Assembly (NCBI GenBank): GCA_965223295.1
Contig: CBDCWC010000003.1
Span: forward strand, 64,001-128,000
Direction: 5' to 3'
Length of the DNA: 64,000 bases
Source of the DNA: Nitrospirales bacterium
GTDB lineage: Bacteria; Nitrospirota; Nitrospiria; Nitrospirales; UBA8639
The notes below the pieces were generated by a model. That model made no database searches, was not told where the DNA came from, and saw only the letters and a list, made by a program, of their open reading frames with translations. Shown piece after piece: positions 28,073 to 44,961 of the stretch. Position numbers and translations under genes: made by a program. Each line of letters begins with the position of its first letter. Position 1 is the first letter of the stretch.

Positions 28073-30787
28073 TCACATTCCATGGCACTTTTTGAATTTC
28101 TTGCCGCTGCCACAGGGGCAGGGGTCGTTGCGACCGACTTTTTCTTCTGTACGGTGAACGGGTTGCTTTGGAGCAGTGGCGGATTCTCCCCGGTTGAGGC
28201 TCATTTGGGGAGGACGCGGGGCCTCCACTTCGGCTTCTGGCCGTTCACCACGCACTAGTTGGAACTTGAACAGGCGTTCGAGCGTATCGCCTTTGATGCG
28301 CTCCATCATGCCAGCAAACATGTCGTAGCCTTCACGTTTATATTCAGCCAACGGATCTTTTTGACCATATCCACGAAGACCAATACCATCCTTGAGTTGA
28401 TCCATCCCCCATAAATGATCTTTCCATTGCTGATCAATCATTTGTAATAATATCGTCCGCTCGATATAGTGAATCAATTCCTCCGTTGCCCCATGTTCCT
28501 CTATTAAATTTTTGACTTTATCGCGATAGGCTTGCTTGAGCTTCTCTGGAATATCTTCTAGAAGCGCATCTCGTCCCAATTCTTTCAGTTCATCAACTTT
28601 GAACGACTCTATGCCATATTGCCCATGCACCGATTCGACCAATCCCGCAAAATCCCATTCTTCTGAATACTGCTCTTCCGGACAGTAGGTCACCACTAGC
28701 CCCTCGCCAATCTCATCAAGCATATCAAGGACTTCTTCACGGACATCGGTGGCTCGCAGAACATTTTGACGATGCTTGTAGATCACTTCGCGCTGTTTGT
28801 TCATCACATCATCATATTCCAGAAGATGTTTGCGAATTTCAAAATTATGACCTTCAACTTTCTTTTGCGCATTTTCTATGGATTTCGTCACCATACGATG
28901 TTCGATCGGGACTCCCTCCTCCATCCCCAATTTCAGCATGAGATTGGAGACACGCTCAGAGGCAAAAATACGCAAAAGATCATCTTCCAATGATAGGAAA
29001 AAACGAGAAGACCCAGGATCACCTTGTCGACCAGCCCGACCTCGCAATTGGTTATCGATTCGACGACTTTCATGGCGCTCTGTTCCAACAATATGCAGTC
29101 CACCCGCCGCCAAGACCTCTTCCTTATTAGCTTCGCAGAACGTCTTGAGCATCTCGAATTCTTTGGCTTTCTGCTCTTCACTCAGGTCCTCACCTTTATA
29201 GATAAATTGCTGCTTGAAGAGTGCCTCAAAATTTCCACCTAATAGAATATCAGTTCCACGGCCAGCCATATTGGTGGCAATCGTCACGGCACCTTTTTGG
29301 CCCGCTTGCGCGACAATTTCTGCCTCCTTCTCATGAAATTTGGCATTCAAGACATTGTGTTTCACACCTCGTTGTTTCAGAAGGGTCGCAAGCCGTTCTG
29401 ATTTTTCAATAGACACAGTACCAATTAAGACAGGTTGGCCTTTTTCATGATGCTCTTTGATATCATCGGCAATCGCCTCGAACTTTTCTTTTTCCGTCCG
29501 GTAAACCACATCAGGATGATCAAGACGAATCATTGCCCGGTTAGTGGGAATCACATTCACTTCTAAGTTGTAGATCTTGGCAAACTCGGCCGCTTCAGTA
29601 TCCGCTGTGCCGGTCATGCCTCCAAGCTTATTGTACATCCGGAAATAATTTTGAAAAGTGACCGAGGCCAATGTTTGATTTTCATTGGCAATTTTTACGC
29701 CCTCTTTGGCTTCCACGGCTTGATGCAGCCCATCACTCCATCGTCGACCAGGCATCATTCTTCCGGTGAATTCATCAACAATCACCACTTCTCCATCTTT
29801 CACCACATATTCTACATCTCGTTTATACAACGCATGCGCTTGTAAGGCTTTCACCACATGATGAACCAGACTTAAATGCTTCAAATCATAGAGGTTGTCT
29901 ACACCAAGAAGCTTTTCAACTTTGGCATTTCCTTCATCGGTGAGGGAAACGGTCTTGGTTTTTTCTTCAATCGTAAAATCTTCTTCTCGCTTCAATTTCG
30001 GAATAATATGATCGATTTGATAATACAAATCGGTGCTCTGTTCGGTAGGACCAGAAATGATGAGTGGGGTCCGCGCTTCATCGATGAGAATACTGTCGAC
30101 TTCATCCACAATGGCGTAATTAAGTTCACGCTGAACGCCTTGCTCCGCGTCAGTCACCACTAAATTATCCCGCAGATAATCAAAACCAAACTCATTATTT
30201 GTGCCATACGTAATATCCGCAGCATAGGCTTCTTGCCTGGAACAGGGTCGGAGAAACTGCAGACGCTTATCTGGGGCATCGTACGTAGGATCAAAGAGAA
30301 AGGAGACTTCATGCTGAATGATGCCGACGGACAGTCCTAAACTATGATAGAGAGGGCCCATCCATTGCGCATCACGCTTGGCTAGATAGTCATTGACCGT
30401 GACCAGATGAACCCCTCGACCATCCAACGCATTTAGGTAAATGGGCAGAGTAGCCACCAGGGTTTTCCCTTCACCCGTCCGCATCTCAGCAATTCGCCCC
30501 TGGTGCAAAACCATGCCACCCAGTAATTGCACATCAAAATGGCGCATTCCCAATTTTCGTTTCGACATTTCCCGACAGACGGCAAAGGCTTCTGGCAGAA
30601 TATCATCCAAGGTCTCACCCGCTTCCAAGCGTTTTATGAAAGCCTCCGTCTTCTCTGCCAAGGCATGGTCTTCCAAGGACCGCAAGGAAGCTTCAAACTC
30701 ATTGGCCTTCTCCACTTGCGGTTTAAGCCGCTTCAGCTCTCGCTCATTGTTACTGCCAAACAAGCTGTTCAAAAGACGTACTAACAT
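28073..30787 (-). CDS. secA: Preprotein translocase subunit SecA
   Basis: [36 protein letters not shown] motifs and SEC-C tail [13 protein letters not shown]. Confidence 0.99.
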
Positions 30788-30841: not shown

Positions 30842-31052
30842 AGGATTGCTGAATAACTACCTTCTCCATGGGCAAACAAGCCCACAGTACCCTTGAACAT
30901 GAAAAGCTTCGGGTCGGTTCAAAAAAGTCCGCTCGCCTGCGCGAAGCCAGGTCCAGCAAGACGACAACCAAACTCAGGCGCAGAGCGTACCGTTCGTACG
31001 TGAGCACCGGAACTTGGTGAGTACGCCGCTGGCGGCTTTTTTCAACAGACCC
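30842..31052 (+). mobile_element. MITE family 1, copy E, upstream of secA
   Basis: Inner core GGGTCGGTTCAAAAAAG ... TTCAACAGACCC at 30911-31052; degenerate outer end AGGAT-TGCTGAATAA at 30842. Target duplication unclear. Confidence 0.7.
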
Positions 31053-31434: not shown

Positions 31435-32061
31435 ATGCCTATTGATAATTGCTTCATGATGTCGCCCAGGAACATCGATCGATATCAATGCAAATTTTTT
31501 TCTCCGGCATTCATGTTTATGAGCGTCTGTCTACTTCCCATACTGGCCATAGCCCAAGACATGCCCCCCCAGGAAGAAGACGAAATCGAAATGCTTGAGG
31601 TCATCGAGATTACGGGAACCGTTGTGGAGGATACTCCTCGAAACATGATCTTCCCCACTCCACAAATCCCAGCCCAGCTTCATATCATGGTGACGGATCA
31701 ACTGGCACTTCCCAAATTTGAATTGATCAAGCCATTTGAAAAACCATCGACGATCTTGTTGGATGAAACTGCCAAGAACCGCAATATCCATACGCCTGTT
31801 AAGCCATTAAAAACTGATCATCCTCCTTTTCCCAGACGCGCACGAGAACAGGGCTGGCATGGACGAGTGATCTTACGCTTGGCTATTTCGTCTCAAGGCC
31901 AAGTACAATCAGCCAATATTCACCAAAGTTCTGGACACCCGCTCTTGGATGACAGTGCCGTCAAGGCTGCCACCCAATGGCAGTTTCAACCTGCGAAAAA
32001 CGGCGCCTTTCCTGTGGCTTCTATTGTCAATATTCCCATTCAATTTGATTTAGTGAAGTAA
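31435..32061 (+). CDS. TonB C-terminal domain protein with probable cleavable signal peptide (start uncertain)
   Basis: PPFPRRAREQGWHGRV...SSGHPLLD..A..W.F.PA TonB_C motif; LLPILAIA-QD resembles a signal peptidase site. Confidence 0.85.
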   Translation: MPIDNCFMMSPRNIDRYQCKFFSPAFMFMSVCLLPILAIAQDMPPQEEDEIEMLEVIEITGTVVEDTPRNMIFPTPQIPAQLHIMVTDQLALPKFELIKPFEKPSTILLDETAKNRNIHTPVKPLKTDHPPFPRRAREQGWHGRVILRLAISSQGQVQSANIHQSSGHPLLDDSAVKAATQWQFQPAKNGAFPVASIVNIPIQFDLVK

Positions 32062-32094
32062 TTGGCCTACAAGAGACCTAAAAGGACTGAATAT

Positions 32095-33141
32095 ATGAAT
32101 CACCTTCGATATTCGTATTTCATGATATGCTCGGTCATCGTGCTATGCCTCAGCCCTCCACTATATAGCCATGCTGGAGAGGCGCAGGACCTCCTCGCTC
32201 AAGCTCATTCGACCTACAAAGAACAGCAATGGGCTTCGGCGAAATCTCCCTTGGAACGCGCCATTGCGCTTTATCCTCAATATGCCGAAGCCCATCATCT
32301 TTTGGGTCTCGTGTTGACGAAACTTGATCAACCTAAACTGGCTATTGCCTCGCTACAACAAGCGGTCGAGGCCTATCCCGCCTTTGCTCAAGCCTATATG
32401 GATTTAGGGTTTGCGTTTCAGGATCAAGGACAATTCGAAGACGCCGAGCAGGCATTCCGACAAGCCTCTATTATTTACCCCACGTACCTGGAAAGTTGGA
32501 CGGCGCTGGCCACACTCTTTGATCAACAACAAGACGCTTCCAAGGCCATCCAGGCTCATCAAAAAGTTTTAGAAATCGATCCGCATCATGCTGACTCACT
32601 GTACGGATTAGCCTATTGGTTCGTCCGTGAAGGAAATCCCCAAAAGGCACAGCCATATGTGGAGCAGCTCACGACCCAAGATCCCAAACATGTAAATGGA
32701 TGGCTTATTACAGGGTCATTGGCACAGCAAACCAATCAGACTGAAAAAGCTATTTCGGCCTATCAACGAGTCGTGGCTCTCCAGCAACAACTTGTTGAGC
32801 CATACTTTAATTTGGGCATCTTATACCAACAACAAGAACAGCATACCGAAGCCGCCGAAGCGTTTAAGAATGTGCTTCGCCTGGACAAGAACAATCCAGA
32901 AGCCCATATCAACTTAGGTGTGGTCTACACGGCGCTTTCCAAACTGTCAGAGGCAGAGGAACACTATCAGGCCGCCTTAGCCCTCAATCCTCAATTGTCA
33001 GAAGTCCATTACAACCTGGGATTACTGTATGAGTTTCATCATAATGCGCCTCAAAAGGCGCTGGAATACTACAAGGAATATGTCAAACTCGGGGGACAGG
33101 ATGAACGAATTACCAAACTTCTCACACGAGTCGGGTCGTGA
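32095..33141 (+). CDS. Exported tetratricopeptide-repeat protein
   Basis: Multiple AEAH/YxNLG TPR units; signal peptide; AAAGGA RBS before ATG 32095. Confidence 0.9.
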   Translation: MNHLRYSYFMICSVIVLCLSPPLYSHAGEAQDLLAQAHSTYKEQQWASAKSPLERAIALYPQYAEAHHLLGLVLTKLDQPKLAIASLQQAVEAYPAFAQAYMDLGFAFQDQGQFEDAEQAFRQASIIYPTYLESWTALATLFDQQQDASKAIQAHQKVLEIDPHHADSLYGLAYWFVREGNPQKAQPYVEQLTTQDPKHVNGWLITGSLAQQTNQTEKAISAYQRVVALQQQLVEPYFNLGILYQQQEQHTEAAEAFKNVLRLDKNNPEAHINLGVVYTALSKLSEAEEHYQAALALNPQLSEVHYNLGLLYEFHHNAPQKALEYYKEYVKLGGQDERITKLLTRVGS

Positions 33142-34031
33142 CAACCACGTTTCCTGAGCAGCATGCAGATACCCGTATCTTGGCGCTGAGTGCATTGGGC
33201 AGTCTTGCACTACATGGGTTCATCATCTTTGGTTTGGCCAATATCCCGAAAGTGGCAGCCGTGAAGGATGATCCTCCAACTGTTACCGTAACCTTATTAC
33301 CAACATCAGAAGTTTCTCCGACACCACCAACCTCTGAACCAGTCGTTCAGCCCCGCACGGCGATGCCAAAGACACAATCTCTCCCTACTCCTCACTCGCC
33401 ACCACAACGATCTCATCCTGTGCTACCGCCCATGCAAGCTACATTGACCCCGTCGCTGCCCAAAACACCGGCTCCATTACCACCCCCAACCCTGACAAAA
33501 CCGATTTTGAAAGATACGCGGGCATCACAAGCCATGAAAGCCAGAAACCTAATGAAAATGCGAGTGCCCTCTCAAACTCAACAAGCGGCACCTTCCTTGC
33601 TGAAAGTGAATCCTCGCACAGACTCAACACCGCATCTCTTCGCGCCAATACCGAGGGTGCAAGAAAAGCGTACAAACACTCCCTCTCTTCCTGCGCTACC
33701 CGCATTCACAACACCGAAAACCCTCGCCCCCCCGTCACCGGCGCAAGCCGCACCCGGCATGACTCGGCCAACAATCATTTCATCATCCAAGCCCGTATAC
33801 CCACGGGTGGCCAGAGAGTCTGGATGGGAGGGCACCGTCATTGTCCGAACCCTGATCAATACACATGGAGTGCCCAGTCAGGTCAAAATCCAAAAAAGTT
33901 GTGGGTATCCTACGCTGGATCAAGCAGCGCAAGAGGCCGTCTCGACCTGGACCTTTCAACCTGCCAAAGACGGGAACATCCCCATCACCAAGTGGGTTGA
34001 TATTCCCATTAAGTTTAATCTCAAGAGTTAA
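33138..34031 (+). CDS. tonB: Energy transducer TonB
   Basis: Transmembrane SLALH (SxxxH) motif, Pro-rich linker and YPRVARESGWEGTV TonB_C domain. Confidence 0.92.
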   Translation: MTTTFPEQHADTRILALSALGSLALHGFIIFGLANIPKVAAVKDDPPTVTVTLLPTSEVSPTPPTSEPVVQPRTAMPKTQSLPTPHSPPQRSHPVLPPMQATLTPSLPKTPAPLPPPTLTKPILKDTRASQAMKARNLMKMRVPSQTQQAAPSLLKVNPRTDSTPHLFAPIPRVQEKRTNTPSLPALPAFTTPKTLAPPSPAQAAPGMTRPTIISSSKPVYPRVARESGWEGTVIVRTLINTHGVPSQVKIQKSCGYPTLDQAAQEAVSTWTFQPAKDGNIPITKWVDIPIKFNLKS

Positions 34032-34057: not shown

Positions 34058-34669
34058 GTGGGATTTCTCAACATGCTGATGAGCGGCGGCTGGATGATGA
34101 TTCCGATCATGGCCTGTTCTGTCCTAGCCCTAACAATTAGCATTGAACGGTTGATCTATTTCAAGAAATTTCAATCAAGCCGGCTTGCGCCCAAAATGCT
34201 CGCATTGACCGAACAAGAGAAATTTACGGATGCCTTGGCTCTTGCCGAACAACACCCTAGCCCTACTCTGAGGGTGATTGCCAGCGGGATCCAGCAACGC
34301 ACCAACTTTCCTAGTAAAGCCATGGAAGCCTCAGGCATCGTCGAACTCACCAAGATGAAACGAGGCCTCCCTATCTTGGATACCGTGATTACCCTTGGAC
34401 CACTTCTAGGCTTGCTTGGAACCATCATCGGAATGATTGATTCATTCGGACTCATGTCCGAATCTGGCTTGGGCAACCCGCATGCTGTCACCGGCGGCGT
34501 TGCAGAGGCATTAATTTGCACGGCCGCCGGAATTATTGTGGCCGTCACCACGTTAATTCCCTACAATTTTTTTCTGGCGCGCGTAGAGCAAGAAACTGAA
34601 AACATTGAACATTACGCAACTAAGACCGAGGCCGCGCTCCAACGCGAAAGCCATCGAGCGAGACCATGA
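34058..34669 (+). CDS. exbB: ExbB/TolQ/MotA proton channel subunit
   Basis: PLLGLLGTIIGMI and GGVAEALICTAAG motifs. Confidence 0.93.
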   Translation: MGFLNMLMSGGWMMIPIMACSVLALTISIERLIYFKKFQSSRLAPKMLALTEQEKFTDALALAEQHPSPTLRVIASGIQQRTNFPSKAMEASGIVELTKMKRGLPILDTVITLGPLLGLLGTIIGMIDSFGLMSESGLGNPHAVTGGVAEALICTAAGIIVAVTTLIPYNFFLARVEQETENIEHYATKTEAALQRESHRARP

Positions 34670-35076
34670 AACTTTCTGCTGCTGTCAAAAAGAAACCGCG
34701 GATTGAGATCATTCCCATGATCGACACGATGTTTTTTTTGCTTGTCTTTTTCATGATTGCCACACTATCAATGACCATACAACATGGTATGCCTGTGAAT
34801 CTTCCTGAAGCCAGCTCCACAACCGACGACGTGAAGGAGCCGGTTTCGTTGACCATTACAGAAAATGGAGACTTGTTTTACAACAAAGAAATGATTACGA
34901 TTCAGGAGCTTCAAACAAGGCTCACAGGGCTTATCCAAAAAAATCCGGAGCCAACGATTGTGATCAATGCAGATGAACAGGTAACGCACGGCTTGGTCGT
35001 GACTGTTATGGATAAATTCCGACTGAGCGGCATTCAGCACATGGCGATTGCCACAAAACCTGAAGCCACACAATGA
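34666..35076 (+). CDS. exbD: Biopolymer transport protein ExbD
   Basis: IIPMIDTMFFLLVFFMI and INADEQV motifs. Confidence 0.93.
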   Translation: MKLSAAVKKKPRIEIIPMIDTMFFLLVFFMIATLSMTIQHGMPVNLPEASSTTDDVKEPVSLTITENGDLFYNKEMITIQELQTRLTGLIQKNPEPTIVINADEQVTHGLVVTVMDKFRLSGIQHMAIATKPEATQ

Positions 35077-35417
35077 GAATGTCTTCAAAAATGAGTCACA
35101 TACGGTCAGGGGGGATCTTTCTCTCTTCTCTGTATGTATTTCTCCTGGGCGCCGCATCATTTTGCATGTTCGCCCATTCCACTCCTCTGAACGAAGAAAG
35201 CCACCATACCCAACACACTGCGACCCATTCCACGTTATGTACCTGGGCTTGTCAGGTCAGTTCCTCTCCTTCAAACGGGCAGGTTGCCTCAACGCCTGAG
35301 ACAAAGCCAGATTTGTTGCTTATTGCTCTTCTTCCAAACTTTTCTAGCATTCCACTTCCGTATGAGATCGCTTCTGCTCCATCTCGCGCCCCACCTCGGG
35401 TATTCCTTTCTCTGTAG
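35073..35417 (+). CDS. DUF2946/CruR-like small exported protein with RAPP arrest motif (copy 1)
   Basis: Hydrophobic N-terminus, HHTQHTATH, CTWAC and C-terminal SRAPP. ATGA overlap with exbD. Confidence 0.72.
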   Translation: MRMSSKMSHIRSGGIFLSSLYVFLLGAASFCMFAHSTPLNEESHHTQHTATHSTLCTWACQVSSSPSNGQVASTPETKPDLLLIALLPNFSSIPLPYEIASAPSRAPPRVFLSL

Positions 35418-35823: not shown

Positions 35824-35914
35824 TTTCCCGACCAAAGTGTTGTATGTGACGGCATCTATCGGTAGCAAAAGATGCACCAAAAACCTATGATGTTTTAGAT
35901 TGGGTTGTTTATCA

Positions 35915-36265
35915 ATGTCCATCAAATTTGTGATGAGAATTCCATCTCTTCAAAAATTTTTTGTGATCGGGTTAGGACTATGGCTTCTTATCATGAGTGC
36001 TGTTTTAGCCTATCCGATCACAAGTCATGCTATTGATCACCAGCACACGCCGCACAACCATTCCCAAACATGGTGTGACTGGATGTGTAAGGCCAGTCAT
36101 GTAATTCACACACCATCTGTTGTTCTGGCAGAATCATCTTACGTTCTCACATCAAGGTTTCTCTCCTATTCAATCCATCACCTTTCCTCTCTCCTTTTCT
36201 CACCAGACTCTCGTGCTCCTCCAGCGATGCCTCTCTCCTCATCGACCTTACACATATCTGATTGA
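35915..36265 (+). CDS. DUF2946/CruR-like small exported protein with RAPP arrest motif (copy 2; start uncertain)
   Basis: Signal-like N-terminus, HAIDHQHTPHNH, CDWMC and C-terminal SRAPP. Confidence 0.72.
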   Translation: MSIKFVMRIPSLQKFFVIGLGLWLLIMSAVLAYPITSHAIDHQHTPHNHSQTWCDWMCKASHVIHTPSVVLAESSYVLTSRFLSYSIHHLSSLLFSPDSRAPPAMPLSSSTLHISD

Positions 36266-36326: not shown

Positions 36327-36514
36327 AGGACTGTTGAATAATCTAATTTCAAGTTACGAACACGCTTCCAGTGCAGTGGAGGGTTCGATGCGACGGGAAT
36401 GGTCAAAAAAGTCCGCCCCCCTGCGCGAAGCCGCTTTCAGCCTTCGTAGCCACTTCGGCGAAGGAAGCCCGGCGAAGGCAGGGAACGCCGGTGGCGGATT
36501 TTTTCAACATTCCC
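36327..36514 (+). mobile_element. MITE family 1, copy F
   Basis: AGGAC-TGTTGAA ... TTCAACA-TTCCC with exact direct repeat AAAGA at 36322-36326 and 36515-36519. Confidence 0.85.
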
Positions 36515-36577
36515 AAAGACACAATACCCGGTGCAAGAGACGCCTGCTCGTTCATGACTTTGGAGGAGGTTGCAAAC

Positions 36578-37327
36578 ATGCTTCTCACTCAAGCCATCAT
36601 TCGACATTGGATACCGATATCTTTCTTTGTTCTCGCGAATCTATTCAGCATATCTGTCCTCACTTTTTCAGTGCATGCCGAGCATGTACTGGCCCTTCGA
36701 TTAGCCGCGACCCCATTGAATCGCAGCATGTGTGGCATATCGAATGAACATTCCTCTATTCGTATTCTTGCAGCCAAGCATAGAGATCTGTTTCTCCAAA
36801 AAGTTCCTGGCCAACACCGTCCCAAGAATAACCAGGACGCCAGAAAAAAAGACTATGTACACTTTGTCACGATAGCTGACCTCACTGGCGGCCAAATACC
36901 CAATGGCGCCATTGCATTTGACGACCGCCATGCCGTGATCTTTGATGACACACACCCCAAAGGTCTCGCGCGACCAAGATTTTTGTCTCAACTTACTGAC
37001 CATCAACGTCTCATAGCCGAATTGGCATTGAATACTTTTTTGCGCCTCCATCAGGTGTTCAATGCTGCCATTGATACCTGTCGACCCCATCCTGCCTTTT
37101 CGGACTATGAAAATGATGATGATGTGTTACGAATTGAAAAAGGGAAGCGGACATTCAAAAATCTTGTTCAACAATACAACAGCCACCCTTCTTTCCCTCA
37201 AAACACCTCACTTCATGAGCCAGGAACCATAGGAGGATTTGTTGATCCTCATGCAGGCAAAAAATCATATTCGGACTATCAAGCGATGAATCCATTGAAT
37301 TTTTACGTCCCCACGTCGCTTCGTTAA
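36578..37327 (+). CDS. Hypothetical exported protein
   Basis: GGAGGAGG RBS before ATG 36578; signal peptide ending SVHA. The ORF-track extension upstream runs through a MITE. Confidence 0.7.
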   Translation: MLLTQAIIRHWIPISFFVLANLFSISVLTFSVHAEHVLALRLAATPLNRSMCGISNEHSSIRILAAKHRDLFLQKVPGQHRPKNNQDARKKDYVHFVTIADLTGGQIPNGAIAFDDRHAVIFDDTHPKGLARPRFLSQLTDHQRLIAELALNTFLRLHQVFNAAIDTCRPHPAFSDYENDDDVLRIEKGKRTFKNLVQQYNSHPSFPQNTSLHEPGTIGGFVDPHAGKKSYSDYQAMNPLNFYVPTSLR

Positions 37328-39664: not shown

Positions 39665-40486
39665 CTATTTTTTTGCTGGCCAAAACCCCCTGATAGGTAA
39701 ATATTCATCAATCTCATGGGCAGCGGGAGACACCTCCACACCAAATCCCTCACCACAGTTCGCCGGCAGTGGATTGTTTTCTAAGTCACGGATCACGGTA
39801 ATTTGAGGCCAAAACCCTTCGGCCACAATCGTTGGATCGTCAAAGGCAGGCGTGAGATTGGCCATCCAAACATCCGCACGATCAGCACCCTTCTTTGAAT
39901 GCGTGCAGTAATTCGCAATAGCAATATTAATTTGAAGTTTGGCGATACACGACGTTTCTTGAAATTGAGGATAGGACGCTCTCCAAGGAACAAGCCCCAC
40001 CAACTCTGGATCTAATTTTCCTTTAGTGTACCGAAACGCCCGGACATCTGAACTGACCGTGTTTCCTCGAGACACATAGGGAGCGACAGAACCTTCCACA
40101 CGTCTAATTTTTCGGAATACGTTGTGATCCTGCACAGGGCGGGCACCCATAATAGGATTCCCTTTGATATGACTGCCCAAAGCCACGTCTTCACCAGTAT
40201 CCATGCGCTTTGCCACGGTAGAACTCCCATTCGGGAATACGGCACTCATCGCTCGAATAGCTGTCCCATTGCATCCATGCGGAACACTGAATGAATTCAC
40301 GACGCTGCTAGCTCCTTCTAATTCGACCCGTTCAGCAAATGCATTTGGCGTATTTTTGGGAAGGACTGTCGTGTGAGGATTAGCCAACACATCACTCAGA
40401 CCCACACCAGGCCCCACTATGAGTCCACCCAATATCAAACCCATCACCATTTCTTTTCGCAAGCTCAATTGATGCCCCCTCTTCAT
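39665..40486 (-). CDS. Exported protein with YcnI/DUF1775-like N-terminus
   Basis: Signal peptide, HTTV.P and FSVPHGC motifs; AAGGAGG RBS. Family assignment is tentative. Confidence 0.6.
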   Translation of the reverse strand: MKRGHQLSLRKEMVMGLILGGLIVGPGVGLSDVLANPHTTVLPKNTPNAFAERVELEGASSVVNSFSVPHGCNGTAIRAMSAVFPNGSSTVAKRMDTGEDVALGSHIKGNPIMGARPVQDHNVFRKIRRVEGSVAPYVSRGNTVSSDVRAFRYTKGKLDPELVGLVPWRASYPQFQETSCIAKLQINIAIANYCTHSKKGADRADVWMANLTPAFDDPTIVAEGFWPQITVIRDLENNPLPANCGEGFGVEVSPAAHEIDEYLPIRGFWPAKK

Positions 40487-40971: not shown

Positions 40972-41137
40972 ATTCCACTACTGAAACGTAAAGGCTTCGT
41001 CCATCAAGACCGCATAACTGATTTGCATACGGATTGTTCTCAAGTTTTCCCACCCAATTTTCTTTCCACCCTCGTTCTTGATAATCTGCCTATACTCTAT
41101 TTTCTTCCCCTTTCACTCCATCCGGCTGGAGGTCTGC

Positions 41138-42196
41138 ATGAATGCAGTTTGTCCATCTTTCGACATTGGTCCACTCATTCGTCTTGTCACCGTATTACTT
41201 TCATTTTGTGTTGGTTCCTGGCCCCTAACAGGATTCGCTCACCCAGCAGGAGACTTTTACCACCAAGCGGTCGAAGCCATTCAGACTCAGAATCTTCAAG
41301 AGGCTGAATCTTTACTTCATAAGGCCATTTCTGAATTCCCCGCCTATGCCAAGGCTCATCATCTACTGGGACTGGTGCACTACCAGCTTACACAGGACCC
41401 TCATACCGCAATTTCTTCACTTCAACAGGCTGTTCACTTCAATTCCAACTTTGCTCAAGCCCACCATGACTTGGGTCTACTATTGTTAAAAGAAAAAAAG
41501 ATGGGAGAAGCACAACAAGCGCTTCAACAAGCCTTGACCCTGTACCCAAAATTTTGGGAAGCCCGGCTCACATTAGCCAAAACCTTAGACCAAACCGGAG
41601 CAACAGACAAAGCTCTGGAAGAATATGAAACCGTCTTGGACCAAGAGCCTTCCTCCACGGAGGCACTATTTCATTTGGCCTATCATCTTATGCAAAGGAA
41701 TCAACACAACCAGGCTCATGCTCTCCTTACCCGTCTGACAACCCATGACCCACAACATGCTGAAGGCTGGCATTTACTCGGCCGTCTTTTCGAGCAGACC
41801 CAGCAAATCGATCAAGCCACTGATGCCTACCGGCACGTTTTGAAGAACAACCCAGAGCATGCCGAAGCCCATTACAATTTGGGGTTTCTCTATCAACAAG
41901 ACAATGAAACGCAAAAAGCTATTGCGCACTTTCAGCAAGTGGTGCAATTAACACCCACAGATGCTGAAGCCTATTTTAATTTGGGTGTACTCTTTGTCTC
42001 AGAAAAGCAGTTGGATCAGGCAGAGGTCGCCTATCAGAAAGGCCTAGAATTACAGCCAGAATCCATGGAGGGGCAATTCAATATGGGAGCTTTTTATGAA
42101 TTTCATAAAGAAGATCTGCAAAAGGCCAAACATCATTATAAAAAATATCTAGAACTGGGCGGCACTGATACACGCATTCAAAAACTCATGAAGTAA
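41138..42196 (+). CDS. Exported TPR protein, paralog of 32095-33141
   Basis: TPR units; shared YAxAHHLLGLV and YEFH...Y..LGGxDxRIxKL; GGAGG RBS. Confidence 0.9.
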   Translation: MNAVCPSFDIGPLIRLVTVLLSFCVGSWPLTGFAHPAGDFYHQAVEAIQTQNLQEAESLLHKAISEFPAYAKAHHLLGLVHYQLTQDPHTAISSLQQAVHFNSNFAQAHHDLGLLLLKEKKMGEAQQALQQALTLYPKFWEARLTLAKTLDQTGATDKALEEYETVLDQEPSSTEALFHLAYHLMQRNQHNQAHALLTRLTTHDPQHAEGWHLLGRLFEQTQQIDQATDAYRHVLKNNPEHAEAHYNLGFLYQQDNETQKAIAHFQQVVQLTPTDAEAYFNLGVLFVSEKQLDQAEVAYQKGLELQPESMEGQFNMGAFYEFHKEDLQKAKHHYKKYLELGGTDTRIQKLMK

Positions 42197-42290: not shown

Positions 42291-44390
42291 CTAGAAACTA
42301 AATTCTGTTGAAAAAATAGCATTGATGCCAGGAGCATTGATGCCCGATCCATGTTCCTGATAAGGCTGATCTAATATATTCAGGAGTGAAAGTCTAGCAA
42401 TCACGCCTGATCCAAAGTCATAACTTGAACGAAAATTCAGTGTGACCCAACCTGGAGTGCCATCAGGGTCGATCCGAGAATCGGACTGATCGCGGGGACT
42501 GAGACGGTCTTGTCGATTCGCAAATCGCACGAATGATTCCAACCGAAGTTTTGGTGTGAATTGATACGCTGCCCCAAATCGGCCATAGAGTGGAGAAATG
42601 CGATCAGCTGGGTTGGTCCGACCTCCACTAACGGTTTCCTTGCCCCAGGTAAAAGTAAGATTCCCAAAGACTTCCCCTTGTTCATGCCATAGCCATCGAA
42701 CACCCGTTTCAAATCCTAAAAGTGCCACTGCATTCACATTGGCATTTTGGACCACGACTCTCCCGTCATTGGTTATGGCCCCAGTAGGCACGGATTCAAT
42801 TTTATCCTCAATGTTGATGAGAAACCCAATCAATTCCCCCGAAAATTTTGGTGTTTCCCATTTGATGCCCGAGTCAACGCTCCATGCCTTTTCGGGCCCT
42901 AAATTCGTATTTGGAACATTGAACCGATTCCCTGGTCTCGCTCCTAAGGTTGAGAGGTCAAAAATATTTGGAGTGCGAATGGCTCTCCCAAAATTGGCAA
43001 CCAAATTTACAGACTTTGTCAAATGAAAAATTGTCCCCACATCCCCTGTAAATTCAGAGACCGACAAGTGCGTCCCAACAGAACGATCGGCTCTGGGTAC
43101 ATCAATATCGACATAACTCCAACGACCTCCCACTGTGACCTCCCATAGGGAAGAAAGTTGTACGGTCGTTTGTAGGTACACAGCTCCACTCGTGATCGAT
43201 GAATGATTGGCAAACCGGCTGGACACAGAGACAGTGTCCCCTGTGACCACATTTTGGCGTAGACGACGACTTCGTACTTCATCCCGGAGGACTTGAACGC
43301 CGTATTGAAACATTGCATACTCTTTCCAGTGGGAGAGCACTTTCAAATTAAACTCTAACAAGCGATCGCGATTTTCCTCTCGATCAACTTCAAGGCTGTC
43401 AAAATCGCGAATCTGCCGATCGTCGTTGATTTCTTGGAAACTCAGGTTAGCTTCAAGCCGATCAAAGAAAAAAGAATTCAGATTGTGGAGGTAGCGACCA
43501 TGAATAAACAGGCGGTTATTGGGTTTAAAAAAAAACTCAGAAGCACTGGGCTGCTCTTGCCCAAAGCCAGCATGTAATTGGTCAAAACGCGGAGTCTTCG
43601 GTTGTTCAAGGAATTGGACGTTTAGTAAAAAGTTTTGGTATTCGTCACCAATGAAGATTTTTCCATCTCCGGCAAAAGCATTAAAAGCAGAAGGACGTTG
43701 GTGACCGATATCACCCCCTCCCCGAACATCTTCATGGCCTTGATACGTAAATCCTCCACTTAGGCCTAGTCCTTCATAGCCGCCCTTTAGAGCTAATCGA
43801 GTCATCCGTGATAAATCCGCACTGCGAAACCCGCCATGAAGCGTTCCATCCCACGTCCAATTCGTTGTCTGAAAACGGGGGATGGGGGTCTGCACATTTA
43901 CCACTCCACCTATGGCTCCATTGCCATAGAGAGTAGGACTCGCTCCTCGGATCAAGTCAATCTGGTCTACGTTATGTGGATCTATTAAGGCAAAGTATTG
44001 GTTGGGAGCTGATCGAAAAATGGCATTATTCAAGCGCATGCCATCAACGAGCATCACAGTTGAACTGCCCAACAACCCTCGAAGAATCGGTGTTCCCTGT
44101 CCAGGTGTGGTTTCTTGAATGAACACCCCTGTTTCCCCACGAAGGGCATCAGAAAGAGTGTGTGGAGCTCGTTCTTTGATGATTTCCTTCTCGATCACGC
44201 TTTTTGCGGAAGAGACTTCAAACCAGGTTGGCTTTCCTTCTTTGGCCGATACCGTAACTACATCTAATTGCTCCACGCCGTCTTCTTGAAGAGGGATCTC
44301 CTGTGTTTCATGAGGATAATTTTTCCCTGATACCAAACTAGGTAAGGCTAATATTGAAACAAGGAAGATAAAGAGTAGAACACTTTTCAT
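42291..44390 (-). CDS. TonB-dependent outer membrane receptor (start may be 44480)
   Basis: TonB box LDVVTVSA, plug motifs ILRGL...VDGMRLN and RGASPTLYGNGAIGGVVN, LGPEK, C-terminal Phe. Confidence 0.95.
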   Translation of the reverse strand: MKSVLLFIFLVSILALPSLVSGKNYPHETQEIPLQEDGVEQLDVVTVSAKEGKPTWFEVSSAKSVIEKEIIKERAPHTLSDALRGETGVFIQETTPGQGTPILRGLLGSSTVMLVDGMRLNNAIFRSAPNQYFALIDPHNVDQIDLIRGASPTLYGNGAIGGVVNVQTPIPRFQTTNWTWDGTLHGGFRSADLSRMTRLALKGGYEGLGLSGGFTYQGHEDVRGGGDIGHQRPSAFNAFAGDGKIFIGDEYQNFLLNVQFLEQPKTPRFDQLHAGFGQEQPSASEFFFKPNNRLFIHGRYLHNLNSFFFDRLEANLSFQEINDDRQIRDFDSLEVDREENRDRLLEFNLKVLSHWKEYAMFQYGVQVLRDEVRSRRLRQNVVTGDTVSVSSRFANHSSITSGAVYLQTTVQLSSLWEVTVGGRWSYVDIDVPRADRSVGTHLSVSEFTGDVGTIFHLTKSVNLVANFGRAIRTPNIFDLSTLGARPGNRFNVPNTNLGPEKAWSVDSGIKWETPKFSGELIGFLINIEDKIESVPTGAITNDGRVVVQNANVNAVALLGFETGVRWLWHEQGEVFGNLTFTWGKETVSGGRTNPADRISPLYGRFGAAYQFTPKLRLESFVRFANRQDRLSPRDQSDSRIDPDGTPGWVTLNFRSSYDFGSGVIARLSLLNILDQPYQEHGSGINAPGINAIFSTEFSF

Positions 44391-44961
44391 GGGAAAGGAA
44401 GACCCGTAACTTCTCCAGGAATTTATCAGGGTTTCTTTGAGAAACGTCCTGAAGGGGAGAAAGTGCAGAGCCAACGACATTCGTGAAATGGCCTTGAGAC
44501 GATTTTGCGTAGTTATGGCCTAAGGGTAGCCATGGAGACTCTTGACACTCTTCGACAGACTGCAGAAGGAAACTTCAGACGAGATGATCAGTGAGCGGGG
44601 AATTTCCCGTGAGCACTGAAAAACCCTTCAAGGGGTACAACGATATAGTTCGGGGTTCGAAAAGAGGAATTGAATGGCTTCTCCTCAAGAGGAAATTTTT
44701 CTTATTTCTATGGGGATCTTCACGGAAACAGACGAAAATTCCTATAGATTCAAAAAAACCATTTACAAACAACAACTTGTACAAGCTCACTTGGAACGCG
44801 TGAAGGCAAAACTATGTATATATCTAACGCCTTTAAAATAAAGGATAATTTTCGTTTTGCGAGACTTTTTGTCCATTTGCATGAACAAACCCTAAAGGGA
44901 AGGAGAGTCTTTCGAGGCTAGTGGTAGAGTCCCGATTCAGCAAAAAGGCCCTTTAAAGTTC

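Follow-up and report, generated by a model that had tools for sequence, protein, structure and literature searches.

A conserved secreted-type TonB paralog with a receptor-type TonB box in Nitrospirales, a candidate relay of the Ton system

Introduction

In current models of the Ton system, as presented in the accessible part of PMC12905483, a single continuous TonB chain runs from the motor to the receptor in a pull-type mechanism. Here we ask what a second TonB-type protein does in a Ton operon when it has no energising helix and seems to carry the TonB box of a receptor. This protein, sTonB ('secreted-type TonB paralog'), is encoded in the window (the whole stretch of Nitrospirales DNA that was analysed, 64,000 nucleotides). 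Its signal-peptide-like segment lacks SxxxH and precedes the motif EIEMLEVIEITG; a spacer then leads to an intact TonB_C domain. Judged by sequence comparison, sTonB is a real, conserved variant of the Ton system, previously undescribed in the literature searched: no description of such an architecture was found in the full-text literature, by title and start of abstract (subscription papers lie outside its coverage), and the main text of a survey of force transducers (PMC12204202, supplements aside) mentions neither Nitrospirota nor TonB boxes in the part available.

Gene and operon

The operon run comprises sTonB, a TPR protein, the anchored TonB, ExbB and ExbD, followed by two small ORFs around an HTH gene (Table 1). 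Residues 129-206 of sTonB match TonB_C (PF03544, E 7.6e-23); Pfam otherwise gives a weak TonB_2 match and no plug or barrel domain. Residues 37-42 read LAIA-QD and residues 50-62 read EIEMLEVIEITGT, and the LAIA end of the hydrophobic stretch is followed by QDMPPQEEDEIEMLEVIEITGT. The sequence reads as claimed in the sequence-only reading, which had pointed to a cleavage-like AIA-QD ahead of a box-like segment. The same reading had set the missing SxxxH of sTonB against SLALH in the neighbouring TonB; both are seen in the ORF translations, where SLALH spans residues 22-26, and the receptor box EQLDVVTVSA that it had used for comparison is real, at residues 70-79 of the minus-strand receptor in the window. 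Translation of sTonB probably starts at M8 or M9 (31456/31459) rather than at M1, because in the closest ortholog position 1 is Ile and the MM pair is retained. The database gene call begins at M27 (P0002).

Table 1 Features of the sTonB locus and of related loci. Coordinates are those of the window unless a genome or locus is named.
Feature	Position	Strand	Remarks
sTonB	31435..32061	+	208 aa counted from first ATG
Predicted signal peptide of sTonB	31456..31554	+	basic R12, R16, K20; 16-residue hydrophobic stretch; A-I-A before Q41; no SxxxH; predicted cleavage
TonB-box-type motif of sTonB	31585..31617	+	IEMLEVIEITG, residues 51-61; family consensus IETLDVIEITG
Spacer of sTonB	31618..31818	+	near-fixed length, Pro-rich; conserved LLDxTA (LLxDxxA-like) motif at 31756-31773
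TonB_C domain of sTonB	31819..32052	+	F/Y-P motif and last strand intact
TPR-repeat protein	32062..33141	+	predicted signal peptide; begins at the base after the sTonB stop
Anchored TonB	33138..34031	+	SLALH 33201-33215; D-box-like VTVTLL 33282-33299; ~180-aa linker; TonB_C; LLxDxxA-like motif within
ExbB	34058..34669	+	PF01618
ExbD	34666..35076	+	PF02472
TonB-dependent receptor	42291..44480	-	one of 7 in the genome; box EQLDVVTVSA at 44244-44273; possible client
Two small ORFs	35073-35417, 35900-36265	+	His-rich stretch, CxxxC, RAPP
Similar small ORF	G000:C3:1489394-1489732		His-rich/CxxxC/RAPP
Second TPR protein	41078-42196		39% identical to the operon TPR protein over 336 aa
secA	28073-30787		divergent beside the cassette
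GC-rich hairpin-like elements	30925-30965, 36400-36440		non-coding or doubtful-ORF stretches
Conserved hypothetical proteins	36371-37327, 39665-40486		also near the operon in relatives
Receptors with atypical boxes	G000:C3:1577588, C2:1634306, C3:1038431, C2:1610759		4 of 7 receptors
~365-aa SCGxAxC protein	L022:10740-11843, L032, L033, L035-L037, L040, L081, L089-L098		loci of relatives

The genome (G000, 100% complete) has three TonB_C matches: sTonB, the anchored TonB and one in a locus that looks Tol-Pal by gene order and sequences. The sTonB operon is therefore the only Ton operon of this genome, which holds 7 receptors and four MotA/ExbB-family matches.

Conservation and class of the box

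In a homolog search with sTonB 154 matches passed, and the best 120 of these 154 (sTonB and 119 homologs) were aligned. Among the matches listed, the box motif is present in 118/120, the two misses being N-terminally truncated, and the 118 rows covering the site keep L54 in 118, E58 in 117, G61 in 116, I57 in 115 and E52 in 114. The LEVIEITG segment, on which the sequence-only reading had been built, is thus conserved: over the 120 aligned rows of the matches listed, the box columns vary as little as the TonB_C core, and most signal-region and mid-linker columns have an entropy of 2-3.8 bits. From 1.84 billion representatives came some 20 further, divergent members of full length that share this layout, many with a clear A-x-A. 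A motif scan of the unrelated TonB_C proteins among the matches listed found no convincing box and two loose matches.

Two classes of motif come into consideration, the TonB box of receptors and the D-box of anchored TonBs. A first profile, built from 24 receptor boxes of Nitrospirales, leans towards BtuB-like receptors. On it the best window of sTonB is the box, yet it ranks 163rd among 2362 genome ORFs, with 4/7 true receptors lower still. The orthologs in family f3 score 11.7-24.0 on the same profile, as real boxes do, and their boxes (QQLDEVEVTA or EQLDEIEVTA) resemble those of receptors of the order, for example TLDPVIVTGS and RLDEVVVTAT; a receptor within the same operon of relatives starts IETLPVVTVEG. 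We then used two profiles, of 29 receptor TonB boxes and of 39 D-boxes of anchored TonBs, which were correct in leave-one-out in 29/29 and 39/39 cases. On the broader 29-box profile sTonB scores 10.5 bits (p ~0.001 against ~3000 random 25-mers), and on the D-box profile it has p=0.24. When 40 sTonB representatives (<65% identity) were scored, 38/40 were better as a TonB box than as a D-box, with medians of 8.8 and -3.2 bits and all 40 in one register; as the representatives had been located by a box-like pattern, they are no blind sample for box scoring. The claimed likeness to a receptor TonB box thus holds at the level of the class, across diverse members, and is only modest when taken from the single sequence.

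A D-box was scored as a rival because the motif occupies the place of the TonB D-box: it lies ~10 residues past the hydrophobic segment, as the D-box does in TonB (PMC10907165, in the part available), and BLAST weakly aligns it to the neighbour's D-box (E 0.07). An anchor-less TonB would then dock on the ExbD periplasmic dimer and be energised directly. We regard this as very improbable given the profile scores above, by which 2/40 members favour the D-box, together with a nearly invariant acidic E58 and the scarcity of the flanking prolines that the published pattern calls for. That the motif of sTonB is a receptor-type TonB box and not an ExbD-binding D-box is, on these comparisons, well supported.

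Signal peptide or anchor

The N-terminus of sTonB is signal-peptide-like rather than a TonB anchor, as the sequence-only reading had proposed. SxxxH precedes the box in 2/103 sTonB homologs long enough to check (among the matches listed), as against 20/20 anchored TonBs. The hydrophobic segment of sTonB (n=40) has a median length of 17 residues. Receptor signal peptides (n=28) share this median (17, p=0.84), and TonB anchors are longer, at 22 (n=25 after five were dropped by pattern, p=2e-5); kinship inflates these p-values. An [AVS]-x-A site lies ahead of the box in 23/40 sTonB members, 22/28 receptors and 10/33 anchors; simple A-x-A counting separates the classes poorly and was discarded as a discriminator.

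sTonB could also be an uncleaved, membrane-tethered paralog that has no ExbB coupling of its own and sits near the motor with its box as a docking site. The hydrophobic stretch reaches at least 19 residues in 13/40 members, and one subgroup ends its segment in QAFP, an atypical cleavage site. However, 11/28 receptor signal peptides are equally long, the segment varies as signal peptides do, and distant members have clean A-x-A sites preceding the box. We consider such a tether improbable; sTonB is likely to be exported and cleaved.

Spacer, TonB_C domain and structure models

The spacer between box and TonB_C measures 66-69 residues in 36/41 sTonB members, 72 in one and 113-133 in four (the count of 41 leaves out one further sTonB mis-sorted by pattern). 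The three of the four long-spacer proteins that were inspected carry a tandem spacer repeat. The Y/F-P motif, conserved in TonBs according to the available part of 10.1101/2023.07.07.548152, and the last strand of TonB_C are kept in 41/41 sTonBs and in both paralogs. Foldseek gives the FoxA-bound TonB domain as the best match of this domain (6i97_D, E 1.1e-7, rmsd 1.7), and it is 44% identical to the TonB_C of the anchored TonB. A comparison of residues 26-125 with the ESM Atlas gave no usable match.

In the AlphaFold2 monomer of sTonB (116 rows) TonB_C is modelled with confidence and residues 111-116, beside LLDxTA, form a short helix; the box is unpaired and of low confidence. In the model of an f3 ortholog with a canonical box (94 rows) the box is likewise unpaired, and box pLDDT is about 57 in both models. 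These models bear on a self-latched or head-to-tail sTonB, whose box would fill its own TonB_C, in cis or in a trans chain, and keep it off receptors until displaced. Box and domain do sit on one chain, the box-binding strand is kept, and the spacer is long enough for fold-back and conserved in length. Against this, neither monomer pairs the box with the domain, although AlphaFold2 can miss such contacts, and there is no special charge match: charge complementarity favouring self-pairing was rejected, as the median net charge is 0 in both TonB_C domain types. We take such a latch to be unlikely, if somewhat less so than a tether; the self-inhibited decoy floated in the sequence-only reading finds no support here, the missing cis pairing being weak evidence.

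A further motif, LLxDxxA-like, occurs in both paralogs. It precedes TonB_C by ~15 residues in sTonB and in the f3 anchored TonBs, and by ~70 in the anchored TonBs of f1 (ILKDTRA). It is possibly a TPR-binding or packing site.

Spread in Nitrospirales

In two families of Nitrospirales, sTonB is the first gene of a conserved cassette that also contains the anchored TonB and the TPR gene. The order sTonB-TPR-anchored TonB was found in 16/20 loci of a first set, the four exceptions being one locus at a contig edge, one without sTonB and two unrelated BtuB-linked TonBs, and in 18/18 loci of a second set, with a receptor inserted after sTonB in three. The gene is encoded with exbB/exbD, which are not adjacent in most f3 loci. 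In almost every cassette locus read, including those that have lost sTonB, the TPR gene immediately precedes the anchored TonB (L095 has none). Across 151 genomes of the order, the full-length type is present in 57/64 of family f1, 8/17 of f3, 0/65 of f2 and 0/4 of f4; one further f4 genome, G039, has sTonB. The f1 count was made by score minus the genomes checked as lacking sTonB, with the box read directly only in fetched loci, and in f3 the box was read in all 8 sTonB-bearing genomes.

In genus g8 many sTonBs have a tandem spacer repeat and/or two TonB_C domains, and a receptor gene lies between sTonB and the TPR gene (L084-L086, L108, P0122, P0197). Receptors number 5-8 in the four g8 genomes scored with both genes versus 1-4 in six without, a comparison of few, related genomes; the f3 genomes have no trend of receptor number with sTonB presence. 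Just upstream of the cassette in many relatives is an exported, barrel-like protein of ~365 aa that starts SCGxAxC and has no firm Pfam match. This Cys-x-x-x-Cys protein, upstream of sTonB in 7/20 loci, was rejected as an obligatory partner: it has no tblastn match in G000 and remains where sTonB is lost.

Loss of sTonB and an apparent domain swap

Among 14 loci without sTonB, nine have an anchored-type domain (G044 and eight of f3) and five, all of f1, have an sTonB-type domain. In gene content, the first group (G044 and 8/17 f3 genomes, with the anchored-type TonB alone) is a simple loss of sTonB. Because G044 still has 4 receptors, the anchored TonB can reach receptors directly. The linkers of the lone f3 TonBs are 117-136 aa long versus 166-193 in most sTonB-paired ones (one paired linker has 144), which runs counter to a compensation in length. 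According to the available part of PMC13049253, the periplasm is extended throughout the order Nitrospirales. Additional reach would make sTonB attractive there, but the idea of sTonB as an extension that compensates for a wide periplasm is unsupported as a general reason, since the lone f3 TonBs are shorter and f2 is without the gene.

In the five f1 genomes (G097, G122, G132, G081 and G138, loci L101-L105) the locus has no sTonB. Its anchored TonB is ordinary in helix and D-box, whereas the distal RDxTAxRK motif and the domain are of sTonB type. The HMM scores are 11-19 bits better for the sTonB type, and at 21 diagnostic columns these proteins are sTonB-type in 8-10 and anchored-type in 0-2, compared with 3 and 9 in G044. 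In a maximum-likelihood tree of 88 columns the five swapped domains form one clade inside the f1 sTonB group (SH-aLRT 99 and 94), although an AU test does not reject placing them with the anchored TonBs (p=0.114). ExbB nests the five genomes among genomes with both genes; as evidence, the swap counts as a single event. The anchored TonB of these genomes thus appears to carry the C-terminal module of sTonB. Each has one strong TonB match (weak extra matches aside) and 1-3 receptors, which argues that the sTonB domain is a receptor-competent working end and not a dead decoy; receptor competence of the sTonB-type domain is likely on this evidence. We infer that the two-gene state can collapse to either TonB_C domain. 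Since either type can be the sole TonB of a genome, sTonB would be accessory, not essential.

Dispensability in several lineages would also suit a soluble regulator that carries no force, with a box that parks or titrates the anchored TonB and a free TonB_C that caps receptor boxes. Both ends would compete with normal pairing, and in many relatives sTonB follows a regulatory ORF resembling CruR. A competitor, however, requires just one end and no fixed spacer, and the sTonB-type domain is seemingly the working TonB in the five f1 genomes; we therefore hold a regulator to be unlikely.

A candidate two-ended relay

On the best reading, sTonB would be a free periplasmic link that passes the pull of the motor to outer-membrane transporters. 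In the simplest reading, suggested by a box at the input, a TonB_C at the output, a fixed spacer and co-encoding with a motor-coupled TonB, it would be a two-ended relay between the anchored TonB and a receptor, to which we give an even chance. Presumably exported and cleaved, sTonB would be held at its box by the anchored, motor-coupled TonB and would itself, through its TonB_C, take hold of the box of a loaded receptor. The pull of ExbBD would then run through the anchored TonB to the sTonB box, the spacer and the sTonB TonB_C, and on to the receptor plug. The reach gained could be up to roughly 15-20 nm (an estimate from 48-68 residues at ~0.3 nm). Alternatively, free sTonB might pre-mark loaded receptors with a longer handle. 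The adaptor reading, put forward from the sequence alone, gains indirect support from the fixed length of the spacer and from the sTonB module on the sole strong TonB of the five f1 genomes. Given how alike the two TonB_C domains are, either could be bound by the box. Against the relay stand the simple loss of sTonB in several lineages and the lack of a full-length form throughout the 65-genome family f2. A broader version, a two-stage Ton system in which a diffusible boxed TonB is daisy-chained onto the motor-coupled TonB as a detachable force extension that was later hard-wired in one lineage, is a tentative proposal, with a chance just short of even.

If the relay is true, two strand-addition joints in series can carry force, and receptor finding is separable from receptor energising. 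A soluble link can transmit tension but hardly rotation or pushing, so sTonB would allow the pulling model to be tested directly. The protein is also relevant to how nitrite oxidisers take up metals and vitamin B12; N. marina reportedly depends on B12 salvage via a TonB-dependent receptor (10.1101/2020.07.02.185504, in the part available).

Relation to known systems

With canonical TonB (PF03544; TIGR01352; E. coli, P. aeruginosa) sTonB shares the TonB_C fold, the YP motif, the last strand, a Pro-rich linker and the exbB/exbD neighbourhood. Unlike canonical TonB it has neither the SHLS/SxxxH anchor nor a D-box, and has instead a signal-peptide-like segment and a receptor-type box. As in BtuB, FhuA and FoxA, a motif of this class lies a few residues past the predicted cleavage site, but it is followed by a spacer and TonB_C rather than by plug and barrel. 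sTonB is thus comparable to a TonB joined onto the N-terminal end of a receptor.

Proteins other than receptors can be pulled as well. In the periplasm, a TonB-like domain pulls on TolB via strand addition at its disordered N-terminus (PMC12905483, in the part available). In the Tol-Pal system TolB would resemble sTonB as a pulled, non-receptor periplasmic protein. Its Pal-binding propeller sets it apart, and it is not known to have a second TonB/TolA domain. TonB-dependent colicins, pyocins and klebicins are non-receptor proteins that carry a TonB box of their own and are pulled by TonB (PMC11658791, accessible part); they are cargo imported from outside, whereas sTonB is a product of the cell's own operon with a TonB_C output end. 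The profile of MxcH-type receptors (NF038079) matches the TonB_C of sTonB at its positions 6-85. Bacteroides TonBs with extra or doubled domains are another non-standard TonB_C architecture, with B. theta having a doubled TonB_C (10.1101/2023.07.07.548152, available part) and doubling seen also in some sTonBs. The accessible parts of these sources describe none of the MxcH-type and Bacteroides TonB_C fusions as a free protein that has a TonB box of its own.

Receptors and neighbouring genes

Four of the 7 receptors of the genome have atypical boxes (for example EELMSVEVTSV) and score poorly on the box profile, and several of these adjoin genes resembling sensor kinases or response regulators. 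They may be served selectively by one of the two TonB_C domains.

The two small ORFs that follow exbD have a hydrophobic N-terminus, a His-rich stretch, CxxxC and a C-terminal RAPP, and a similar ORF lies elsewhere in the genome. They resemble the copper-sensing leader CruR/DUF2946, although the match of a related ORF to DUF2946 is weak (E 0.017); the CruR leader has CXXC (PMC9426467, in the part available). Up to four such ORFs lie within and before the Ton operon in relatives, often immediately ahead of sTonB, and this suggests that metal controls translation of the Ton module. A promoter and terminator scan stayed at chance level. The GC-rich hairpin-like elements, AAAAAAGTCCGC...CCTGCGCGAAGC, occur twice in the window and are possibly a short repeat family. 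Two conserved hypothetical proteins of the window are also encoded near the operon in relatives; neither the first (36371-37327) nor an ortholog of the second has a Pfam match. The second TPR gene lies directly after exbD in some relatives, and secA is divergent beside the cassette in nearly all f1 loci and several f3 loci.
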